A stretch of DNA of 64,000 nucleotides from an uncultured bacterium (GTDB lineage Bacteria; Babelota; Babeliae; Babelales; Vermiphilaceae): contig OY969561.1 of NCBI GenBank assembly GCA_963701085.1, forward strand, positions 1,088,001-1,152,000. Reading direction: 5' to 3'. Each line of letters starts with the position of its first letter. Positions within the stretch are counted from its first letter, which is position 1. The notes beneath the pieces were generated by a model. That model saw nothing but the letters and a program-made list of their open reading frames with translations. It searched no databases and was not told the DNA's origin. The translations under genes and the position numbers were made by a program. This document shows positions 49,136 through 51,610 of the stretch, in pieces.

Positions 49136-51610
49136 TTATAATTCTTTATTCATTACTTGTTGCGTATCAGTGACGCGCGCAAGCGTATGTTCTTCAAATC
49201 CTAGCGTAATGAGTGTATCAATAAAATCCATTGGTTTAAGTCCAATTTCAGCTGCTTGGTGGAATAAGCATGTTGCTGGTGTGAGTCCGGGTAATGTGTT
49301 ATTTTCAAGAATAACAACGCGTTCTTTTTTTGTTGGGCTTTGCGTGGCTGTTTTGGTAAAAACAGTCAATGCGTGAATATCCTTTGCATTGTAGTGTTGT
49401 AAAAGCGCGTTCCATAATGCGTTGTACAAACTCGAGTGTTGCGTGTGGTAGTGGTGCGGGTGTTTGATTTTCCCCAGCACCGGGTAAGAATTTTTCTTCA
49501 ATAGAAAGTATTCCTGCAGCAGAAACCGCCTGGCTTGGTGGTAATGCACGCGGATGTTCATTACCAATAACTCCCACGGTGAGTTCCATGCCGGTAATAC
49601 ATTCTTCTATTAATACACAATCTTTTTCTTGTAAAACTTTATTAATTGCGACAATTAATTCTTCATCATTGGTTACTTTTTGCACCATTACGCTGCAGCC
49701 ATCATCATGTGGTTTAACTATGAGTGGGTATGCAAGACTATCTTTTTCTTTATCCGCACTCTTCGATACATTTTTGCAAGCAAAAACACTCAGGGCGAGC
49801 GGGAGGGGCAGAGTATTTTCTTTCTGTGAAGTTTTTTCTCCCCGCTCGCCCTGAGTGTTCTTCGTAGCTTCAGCGGAGAAGAATGTATCGAAGGGTGCAA
49901 CCCACGTATTTTTCATAATCAAAATATTCTTTGGAACATCAAAGCCATGCGCAGCAAGTAGTTGGTTTGCTTTATACTTATTCATACACAACGCGCTTGC
50001 AAGCACCGATGATCCGTTATACGGCAAGCCAAGCATTTCTAGTGTGCCTTGTACTGAACCGTTTTCACCTTCACCTCCATGCAGCGCAATAAATACAAAA
50101 TCAGCAATAGATGATAAATCACCCCATTTAATTTTTTGTGATGGTTGCAACAGTTCAACAATTTCTTTAGTAGAATTACGCACGAGTTGTGATTGCGTTA
50201 AAATGTAGAGCTCTAAACTATCGCTGACAAAAACAGGAATTGGTTCGTATTTGTGGGGAGATAGTTTATAAAATACGTTGCGGCCAGAATCGAGTGATGT
50301 TTCTTTTTCATTTGATTTGCCGCCGAGTAGTATTGCAACACGATTTTTTTGTGTATTCATAGTTGGAGATTCCAGTTTTTCTTGAGTAATAATCGTTTCC
50401 AGCATGTTGTATTGTTGGAGTTCTGTTTCAATAATATGGTTAATAAGTTGCGCAGGGCTCATATTAATTTCTGCTGCTTGATTAAAAATATAACTTGATG
50501 GTGCCATGCCAGAGAAGGTGTTAGGATCGATAATAACAACAGTGCCATCGTTGGTTACAAATCCATCGATACGTCCCATATTGCTCAGCTCTAATGCATG
50601 CATTACGTTAATACATGTTTGTTGAATACGTGCAGTAGTTTTAGCGCTACAGCGAGCAGGTGTACGTTTTACACCACGGCCAGGCATGTATTTTTGTTCG
50701 TAATCAAAAAAGCCTATTTCAGTGTGCGCAATGCTTTCTGTGGGAGGTAATGCAAAAAATTCACCTGTCCTGTGATCTGTTAATACAATGCAGGTAAATT
50801 CCATTCCAACAATTTTTTCTTCGATAAGTACGCGCTTTTTTTTGTTAGGATCTATACAGCACGCTTTTTTGAGTGCCTGTTCAAGAGTGCTGCTGTTTGC
50901 GATAGAAATACCAAGGCTGGAGCCTTCATTATAAGGTTTAACAACAAAATGATCAGCATTGTAGCGTGCATCGTTTTTATTCTTTAGCGCTCGTCCTGAA
51001 CTTGTTGAAGGATTTTCTTCGAGCGCTCGAGGATATCCTTCAACAAGTTCAGGACGAGCGCCGGAACATAAAGATTGGGCAGAATTATTGCATTCTGGAT
51101 AATGCCCGCATTAATAAGTCGGTCAAAAATATTGTTTTTGTAGTGCTCAAAATTATCAACTTCATATGGTTCAACGGCGATAAAGCGTGGTGTTGCAATG
51201 CCCGCATTATTGAGGAATGTTTTGAGTACAATTTTATCATTGCGTAATGCACTTGCAAGAACTCCTGAACCAAGATAGGGAATGCCAATAATTTCTAAAA
51301 AACCTTGCAATATACCATCTTCAGCGTAACGGCCATGTTGTGCAATGTAGATAAAATCAACATGATTTTTAAGATCATCCCATGCAATAAGTTCTGCTTC
51401 ATGAGTAAGGCGATGTTCAAAATCAGTTGTTTTTCCACGATGTAAAAAATGCCAAGGAAGTATGTATATTTTTGCATCACTTTGAAATAGTGGAATAACT
51501 GAATAGCGTGATGTATCAACATAATCACAGATTGTTCTGCCGGAGTTAAAAGAAACTTCTTTTTCAAGGGATTTGCCGCCCATAAGGACGCCAACGCGTA
51601 GTTTTTGCAT
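49136..51610 (-). CDS. ddl: Tandem two-domain D-Ala-D-Ala ligase, two apparent frameshifts, one repeat insert per domain
   Basis: Two GGKS.EKE.S..SG starts, HG...E(D/N)G..QG.LE, VKP..(E/D)G.S, RID and NT..G motifs across 50984-51610, 49305-50804 and 49136-49350. Confidence 0.88.
49756..49898. repeat. Family-A variant pair, one arm with a B-like loop, in-frame in Ddl domain 2
   Basis: Arms at 49756-49805 and 49838-49898; encodes APFDTFFSAEATKNTQGERG...PLALSVFACKNVSKS. Confidence 0.85.
50987..51061. repeat. Empty family-A doublet (75 nt) in Ddl domain 1
   Basis: Near-perfect palindrome centred on cgagcgctcg. Confidence 0.9.

Follow-up and report, generated by a model that had tools for sequence, protein, structure and literature searches.

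Overlapped hairpin doublets and small GIY-YIG nuclease genes in a Dependentiae genome

REPINs and RAYT transposases were reportedly described by Nunvar et al. in 2010 and by Bertels and Rainey in 2011. The Ssn nucleases became known only in 2025: according to the main text of Chenal et al. 2025 (PMC11893778), they are 94-aa single-domain GIY-YIG proteins that bind hairpin repeats, termed NTS or SRM, in single-stranded DNA and cut 5' of them, the repeat stands on both sides of 42% of the Ssn homologues, and a likeness to insertion sequence (IS) elements and to repetitive extragenic palindromic (REP) sequences with their RAYTs was pointed out. The main text of Di Nocera et al. 2013 (PMC3733652) describes CGTC-tagged REPs, mostly dimers, some of them in frame in genes (Rickettsia RPE-4 and RPE-6), with the transposase given as not known. 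Here, we analyzed a palindromic doublet at positions 50987-51061 of a 64-kb window, by which we mean the whole stretch of DNA under study, C1:1088001-1152000 of the genome of a tiny bacterium of intracellular type in the phylum Dependentiae (G000; single contig C1, 1,198,634 bp, 37% G+C), and compared it with ten relatives of the same genus (G001 to G010). The original prediction, made from the window alone, had taken such doublets of about 75 nt, in which a left and a right arm share one central 8-mer, for the non-autonomous form, similar to REPINs or miniature inverted-repeat transposable elements (MITEs), of a cassette carrying a gene between the same arms; they were thought to arise by loss of the gene between two 8-mers or to be the target into which the gene inserts.

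The doublet is probably a tail-to-tail dimer of a hairpin repeat that acts as the cognate DNA motif of Ssn-type single-domain GIY-YIG nucleases, which are encoded between the same arms. The elements fit a kind that is already known, the Ssn nucleases with their repeats, and would be a local variant of it. As described in PMC11893778 for SsnA of Neisseria meningitidis and its relatives, inverted hairpin repeats, which also occur dispersed in many copies without a gene, flank the gene of a single-domain GIY-YIG protein of about 95 aa, several paralogues go with a repeat subtype of their own, and the systems are enriched in host-associated bacteria with small genomes. In contrast to the Ssn repeats, the present motif has a two-stem architecture with tandem G.A pairs; moreover, the only Dependentiae genome in the table of that paper, Babela massiliensis, is entered with 0 SRM and no homologue, and the words REPIN, MITE and doublet have no occurrence in its main text. 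According to the same table, whose flags apply to whole genomes, five of the six named genomes with the nearest non-Dependentiae homologues are cd10448-positive and four have an SsnA homologue.

The CGTC REPs, as described in the main text of PMC3733652, resemble our elements in being short tagged hairpins that are mostly dimeric, as homo- and heterodimers, with some copies in frame within genes, often those of replication or repair. They differ in their inner stem, which measures 8-9 bp, starts with two A-T pairs and closes on a loop of 4-5 nt, whereas here it has 4 bp, with G.A/A.G and another pair beyond them. Many arms here carry CGCC or CATC instead of CGTC, and the tags point outward in doublets overlapped at the closing stem, while the CGTC REPs are predominantly head-to-head (the head being taken as the tagged end). 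With REPIN/RAYT systems the elements share an inverted hairpin-repeat doublet as replicating unit, a gene of a single-copy class flanked by the same repeats, and single arms that appear to be decayed doublets, but the flanked gene encodes a GIY-YIG hydrolase and not an HUH tyrosine transposase. Unlike MITEs, they display no target-site duplication at four identical copies and no transposase in the cassettes. The in-frame insertion of a palindrome without breaking the gene, seen in a helicase-like open reading frame (ORF) of G000 and in the ddl-like ORFs of G005 and G007, recalls the Rickettsia palindromic elements as a kind. Searches of the literature for the motif strings and for palindromic repeats of Dependentiae yielded nothing relevant in the main texts, figures and most supplements lying outside the search. 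G000 offers a compact case of such a system, with one contig, four nuclease paralogues, two arm families of opposite dimer geometry, 37 overlapped doublets and datable gains inside conserved genes.

Doublets, arms and nuclease cassettes

The doublet under study and its further copies in the window are the following:

50987-51061, no strand assigned: the doublet under study; left arm, shared centre GAGCGCTC at 51021-51028 and inverted right arm, inside a minus-strand ddl-like gene
12789-12862, no strand assigned: doublet in frame in a 764-aa helicase-like ORF (11798-14092); insertion missing from 10/10 genus relatives
52641-52714, no strand assigned: intergenic doublet, heterodimer of arm subtypes TCGCCC..GGG and TCGTCC GAGCC..GTC
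63693-63766, no strand assigned: doublet with double compensatory changes in its right arm (GTCTTC...CAGACC)
42371-42555, no strand assigned: composite doublet with centre GAGCGCTC at 42461, about 185 nt long, the loops of both arms being interrupted by nested repeats of about 60 nt

The sequence of 50987-51061 is GCGCTCGTCCTGAACTTGTTGAAGGA-ttttcttc-GAGCGCTC-gaggata-TCCTTCAACAAGTTCAGGACGAGCGC. In the window, GAGCGCTC occurs seven times (positions 12822, 14853, 15177, 42461, 51021, 52674 and 63726, all of them within the originally named elements) against 0.29 expected, a count of at least seven being reached in 0/100 shuffles, and the 22-nt arm core, at up to three mismatches, has 12 copies against 0 expected. 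The five elements that had been predicted to be doublets of about 75 nt all have this 8-mer as their single centre; the size holds for four of them (74-75 nt, left arm plus inverted right arm) and not for the one starting at 42371.

Across the genome, 132 arm cores were found at up to four mismatches and 147 at up to five. Seventy-four of the latter make up 37 doublets, and the other 73 are solitary or part of composites. Arm orientation is given by a conserved 5' GCGCTCG head, and neighbouring arms within 120 nt of each other form 37 pairs with the tags outward, one with the tags inward and none on the same strand. The 8-mer GAGCGCTC itself is present 60 times, compared with 4.8 expected from base composition, and 48 of these copies lie no more than 50 nt from an arm core. 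Among all genomic doublets, the alignment of which had been proposed along with the original prediction, the centre is GAGCGCTC in 29/37 and a related one with a GCGC core (AGCGCT, AGCGCGCT or similar) in the remaining eight. In 25/37 doublets, an arm with a TATC linker is paired with an arm with a TTT[CT] linker.

Each arm forms its own two-stem hairpin, consisting of a closing stem of 6-7 bp, GCGCTC(G)/(C)GAGCGC, an inner stem of 4 bp, a tandem G.A, one further pair and a small loop. Among the 132 arms, pair 4-22 is TA in 83, CG in 46 and GC in one, pair 5-21 is CG in 124, TA in seven and AT in one, and pair 10-16 is AT in 104, GC in 27 and GT in one, while G8.A18 and A9.G17 are invariant (132/132). 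Arm copies are not independent events, yet several pair types combine differently. Since the inner stem covaries and the partner arms within one doublet are often of unlike subtypes, the conserved pairing is that within an arm and not that across the long palindrome. The closing stem covaries as well among subfamilies, with GCGCTC/GAGCGC, GCGCT/AGCGC and CCGTTCG/CGAACGG. In DNA folding, single arms adopted the two-stem hairpin at -7 to -9.3 kcal/mol and the strand of a whole doublet one long hairpin at -37 to -38 kcal/mol; the latter as the selected structure was ruled out by the covariation within arms and by the frequent differences between partner arms. Tandem G.A pairs are stabilising. As they are confined to one strand here, an arm has a functional strand.

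Because of the palindromic GCGC core of the closing stem, the GAGCGC of the left arm and the GCGCTC of the inverted right arm overlap by four bases and thereby produce GAGCGCTC; in a class with short linkers, an overlap of two or four bases leads to AGCGCGCT or AGCGCT. Each strand of a doublet thus formed retains one full forward hairpin. A doublet is a cassette minus its gene module, merged at the closing stem, and the geometry originally described was correct. It is this palindromic closing stem, and no fixed duplication, that leaves a direct repeat around the gene. Cassette 2 has a repeat of 8 nt, cassettes 1 and 3 and cassette L003 of a relative have one of about 5-6 nt, and L004 and L002 have 4 and 11 nt, respectively; L009, which is of the CCGTTCG type, has none.

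Two of the cassettes lie in the window:

14820-14860, plus strand: cassette 2 left arm, complete two-stem hairpin with 3' end GAGCGCTC
14879-15169, plus strand: cassette 2 gene, 96-aa single-domain GIY-YIG protein (PF01541, E 2e-18)
15177-15217, minus strand: cassette 2 right arm, same hairpin, starting with GAGCGCTC on the plus strand
3301-3339, plus strand: cassette 1 left arm, core variant GAGTTTGTC, 3' end GAGCGC
3357-3704, plus strand: cassette 1 gene, GIY-YIG paralogue with 74% identity to cassette 2, its 115-aa ORF continuing into the right arm
3655-3692, minus strand: cassette 1 right arm, inner 8-mer decayed to gatCGCTC

The presence of the 8-mer at the end of the left arm and at the start of the right arm of cassette 2, as originally noted, was reproduced at 14853 and 15177. 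Cassette 2 is the only one with an exact 8-mer at both inner edges; cassette 1 has GAGCGCag and gatCGCTC, and cassette 3 has AGCGC on both sides. Four close paralogues of the 96-aa class (C1:1102879, 1091357, 231646 and 339431, the last on the minus strand) each lie between matched inverted arms of their own subtype. PF01541 covers residues 5-77 of the 96-aa protein of cassette 2, which has this single domain, and no NCBIfam model was found for it. Its closest solved structures are the UPF0213 proteins 1zg2 and 1ywl of about 100 aa. Y8, Y18, R28 and E66, which we take to be the catalytic Tyr, Tyr, Arg and Glu of the GIY-YIG fold, are invariant across 12 sequences of the genus. The layout of arm, gene and arm recurs in nine cassettes of the relatives, with the gene module exactly between the strands of the closing stem. 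Matched arms, that is homodimers, were found in the three cassettes of G000 and in 5/6 cassettes of relatives with comparable linkers (L002-L006 and L009).

Two decaying cassettes were seen among the relatives: L167 (G008:C3:121100-121800) breaks off behind codon 55, its right arm being lost, and L168 (G009:C1:944700-945400) has intact arms and an in-frame TAA in its gene. Next to cassette 3, at C1:230719-231976, a gene of about 200 aa resembling those of membrane proteins also lies between a left and a right arm; the 50-nt stretch preceding both left arms is duplicated there, so that the layout of the cassettes is found around a cargo gene.

A second arm family, with a long and variable distal stem, comprises 64 arms (for example C1:300527-300650) and is cognate to paralogue 4 (C1:339183-339437). 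Its dimers are tags-inward in 15 cases, with spacers of 20-70 nt, versus tags-outward in three, which is the reverse of the geometry of the GCGC-type doublets. Given that its dimers are mostly tags-inward, dimers arise without cassettes.

Doublets and cassettes at orthologous sites

Four doublets (C1:26608, 206491, 878429 and 909780) have identical sequences of 74 nt between unrelated flanks. The helicase-like ORF measures 764 aa in G000 versus 730-737 aa in 10/10 relatives, in which a stretch of about 100 nt is missing; by eye, its product (11798-14092) reads as a putative helicase of the RecD type, and the doublet accounts for an in-frame insert of about 30 residues just before the Walker A region. 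At the ddl-like site, a doublet is present in G000, G005 and G007 (3/10 genomes) and the seven others compared lack it. The ORFs of G005 and G007 read through the doublet, at 771 and 826 aa, and its copies in G000 and G005 display compensatory differences within the arms. Doublets read through inside long ORFs amount to 4/37. Doublets are thus gene-less, non-autonomous, REPIN-like units that were gained whole, even in frame within genes. In this respect the original prediction stands, on the strength of the four identical copies with unrelated flanks and of the lineage-specific in-frame insertion absent in 10/10 relatives. The asymmetry of TATC and TTT[CT] linkers shared by 25/37 suggests copying of founder doublets in doublet form. 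The GCGC core as a duplicated insertion target was dropped, the empty ddl and helicase sites of the relatives being without GCGC at the insertion point.

The ddl-like gene of G000 (49305-51610, minus strand; assigned by eye) is split, whereas the relatives have a tandem double gene of 736-826 aa. The N-terminal frame of G000 crosses the doublet and stops just beyond it, and the C-terminal frame is one base off at the gene-proximal junction. The split gene is one of three things: a pseudogene, a sequencing error or a recoded site.

The site of cassette 2, resolved in seven relatives, is arm-free in G005, G007, G009 and G008 and holds other arm types in G004, G003 and G010. That of cassette 1 is arm-free in G010, G004 and, by coordinates, also G005, with other arm types in G002 and G007. 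In the opposite direction, six cassettes of relatives (L002, L003, L004, L005, L008 and L010) were mapped on G000 via both flanks. The sites of L003, L004, L008 and L010 are arm-free there, and that of L005 is a tags-inward pair of the long-stem family. The cassette L002 of G006 corresponds to the G000 doublet C1:524146-524219 in the spacer C1:524089-524662, with arms from unlike subclasses, short-linker TCATCC in the cassette versus long-linker TCGTTC in the doublet. Across the genus, this spacer is empty in four genomes, holds CGTTCG-type arms in another four, and is occupied by the doublet in G000 and by the cassette in G006. The spacer is a hot spot, and conversion is shown in neither direction by the pair. 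The comparison of orthologous sites, which had been suggested as a check, delivered one pair of a filled and an empty site, but with arms of another subclass and in a hot-spot spacer. In three spacers (window 14749-15245, window 3273-3740 and C1:524089-524662), unlike members of the hairpin superfamily were observed depending on the species, and none in other species; insertion sites appear to be reused.

Counted by sequence pattern, with the reversed pattern as a control that gave 0 everywhere, doublets number 36 in G000, 28 in G007, 22 in G009, 19 in G004, seven in G002, six each in G010 and G008, four each in G006 and G005, and none in G003 and G001. In G001, neither doublets nor a nuclease homologue were found.

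Public reads were searched as well. In the best runs, the share of sampled words present is 0.21-0.33, in Logan contigs 150-377 nt long with a depth of 2-5; no Logan contig skips a cassette or a doublet, and the reads are uninformative on excision or mixed alleles. One Logan contig joins a left arm like that of cassette 2 to a gene start like that of cassette 1, which represents another cassette variant and not a collapse. A metagenome scan with a 20-nt flank of cassette 2 had an unrelated contig as its sole match and is uninformative on excision or mixed alleles.

Spread of the doublets and rival explanations

Starting from what is observed, that is, the structure of the arms, their strand asymmetry, their link to the nuclease gene and the fact that doublets, and likewise entire cassettes together with their arms, are gained as units, a path of multiplication can be proposed. 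If the nuclease acted like SsnA of Neisseria, it would bind single-stranded DNA at the forward hairpin and place a nick 5' of it. Because the tags face outward, two such nicks on opposite strands would bracket a doublet or a cassette, which may then be copied to new sites via host repair or recombination; spread would need these host functions because the GIY-YIG hydrolase does not rejoin DNA. Should the nuclease indeed move doublets, this would represent a transposase-free route to REPIN-like elements, and the pairs of arm and nuclease would add new specificities for single-stranded DNA tools.

A core of the CTGAGCYTGTCGAAGG type was detected at 60/80 homologue loci, in the arrangement left-plus/right-minus around the gene at 26/80, and these loci belong to Proteobacteria, Chloroflexota, Dependentiae and others. 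The Y1 transposase family PF01797 was not found in G000, a single contig with a completeness of 92.6%, and the control search matched 6/14 genomes. We tentatively consider a more far-reaching reading, possible as a whole though doubtful, which has three parts. A hydrolytic GIY-YIG single-strand nuclease, and not an HUH transposase, might drive a REPIN-like population; the overlapped doublet might be the minimal two-sided substrate, nicked at its outer edges and copied by host repair with enough precision to settle in frame in helicase and cell-wall genes; and the cross-phylum CTGAGCYTGTCGAAGG hairpin might represent a second large class of Ssn-type motifs. This class of hairpins, located around such nucleases in many phyla, is missed by the published SRM pattern, and counting repeats with that pattern therefore understates the system.

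Several results weigh against the doublet being the motif of an Ssn-type nuclease that spreads it. The published SRM pattern has 0 sites on either strand of G000, with 0-1 in five simulated genomes, and matches in only 3/80 homologue loci. No target-site duplication or flanking direct repeat was found at the four identical copies. The same spacers hold differing element types in different species, a situation for which recombination or a scarcity of permissive sites, and not transposition, could be responsible. G005 has four doublets, yet its sole match to the nuclease query is weak and contains a stop (E 1e-4), and G003 has nuclease homologues and 0 doublets by pattern. Finally, to our knowledge a GIY-YIG hydrolase alone cannot rejoin DNA.

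It is rather unlikely that arms and nuclease have instead been domesticated by the host, for example to restrict or channel single-stranded DNA as proposed for NTS and SsnA in Neisseria, and that doublets spread and remain uniform by recombination and gene conversion rather than by nuclease-driven transposition. Domestication is proposed in the discussion of PMC11893778, and such retention would agree with doublets being 90-97% identical between species whose genes are 71-82% identical, and with the ddl doublet being kept in three species with compensatory changes, but copy numbers ranging from 0 to 36 across species of one genus, insertions within genes, one of them with a frame break, and decayed nuclease copies are more typical of selfish elements.

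According to another explanation, which we regard as unlikely, doublets are dead cassettes whose gene was deleted by slippage or recombination between the inner direct repeats, aided by the inverted arms. Such a collapse would resemble the nearly precise excision of Tn10. It would be consistent with GAGCGCTC at both inner edges of cassette 2, whose predicted collapse product differs from the doublet C1:981958 at only 2/74 nt, with the 11-nt direct repeat GCGCTTTAATC around the gene of cassette L002 in G006, and with the three tags-outward pairs of the second arm family, whose spacers of about 40 nt are possible remnants of a lost gene. As a general origin, gene loss between 8-mers, as first suggested, is not supported. 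The direct repeat is just 4-6 nt long in cassettes 1, 3, L003 and L004 and missing in cassettes of the CCGTTCG type, and C1:981958 is the only doublet within 2 nt of a predicted product. Moreover, TATC/TTT[CT] heterodimers make up 25/37 doublets, as opposed to homodimers in the three cassettes of G000 and in 5/6 of the relatives' cassettes with comparable linkers. The identical doublets at four sites would require four cassette insertions followed by four identical deletions, the sole decayed cassette of G008 lost its 3' half and right arm instead, and the second arm family has 15 tags-inward dimers against the three mentioned. For some doublet lineages, there may have been a founding collapse. 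Overall, the original observation was correct and its interpretation partly right, with regard to the REPIN-like non-autonomous form, while collapse as the rule is unlikely.

Homing, in which an empty doublet receives the nuclease gene when a cut in the doublet is repaired from a filled copy, is very unlikely here. GIY-YIG homing endonucleases exist, the gene module lies exactly between the closing-stem strands in all cassettes, and the spacer C1:524089-524662 holds a cassette in G006 and a doublet in G000. As mentioned, the arms of that pair are of different subclasses (TCATCC short-linker versus TCGTTC long-linker), and the same spacer has CGTTCG-type arms in four other genomes and nothing in four. 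In addition, 4/6 mapped cassettes of relatives correspond to arm-free sites of G000, and arm-free sites of cassettes 1 or 2 were found in G005, G007, G009, G008, G010 and G004. The proposal that a doublet is the insertion target is weak, and 1/6 sites is, by our estimate, about what chance would give with 37 doublets among a thousand or so spacers. Furthermore, the cut of SsnA as described in the main text of PMC11893778 is 5' of the hairpin, a position that corresponds here to the outer edge of the element and not to its centre.

That doublets are transcript hairpins, terminators or stabilisers, with an incidental link to the nuclease gene, is extremely unlikely: the hairpin of -37 to -38 kcal/mol and the position of many doublets just upstream of ORFs or between ORFs would suit such a role, but the selected pairs are intra-arm and not across the long hairpin, on both strands the conserved flank after the hairpin has A runs in place of T runs, 4/37 doublets are read through within long ORFs, no Rfam family matched and the gene association extends across phyla. 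In the Rfam search at gathering threshold, only a tRNA was matched. The terminator reading was ruled out, the T runs being on the wrong side.

Lone arms, nested repeats and mosaics

One further row of the window concerns a single arm:

1164-1185, minus strand: lone arm core of the CCGCTCATCC..GAGC..GTC subtype, without a closing-stem partner

A fifth and distant small GIY-YIG frame lies outside the window at C1:843843-844097 on the minus strand (PF01541, E 3e-15); its tblastn match contains a TAA. Nested repeats within arm loops or beside doublets were located at 42384-42447, 42486-42546 and 63800-63875. Among them is a second small hairpin, CCTCCGAAGC-N-GCGAAGGA, which has 19 genomic copies. 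An additional conserved flank, AGGAAAAAATTAGTTTAGGGATAGG, or its inverse on the opposite side, accompanies some doublets (C1 26682-26710, 680321-680348 and others; window 52600-52640), and a palindrome with this flank extends into a larger mosaic resembling the bacterial interspersed mosaic elements (BIMEs).

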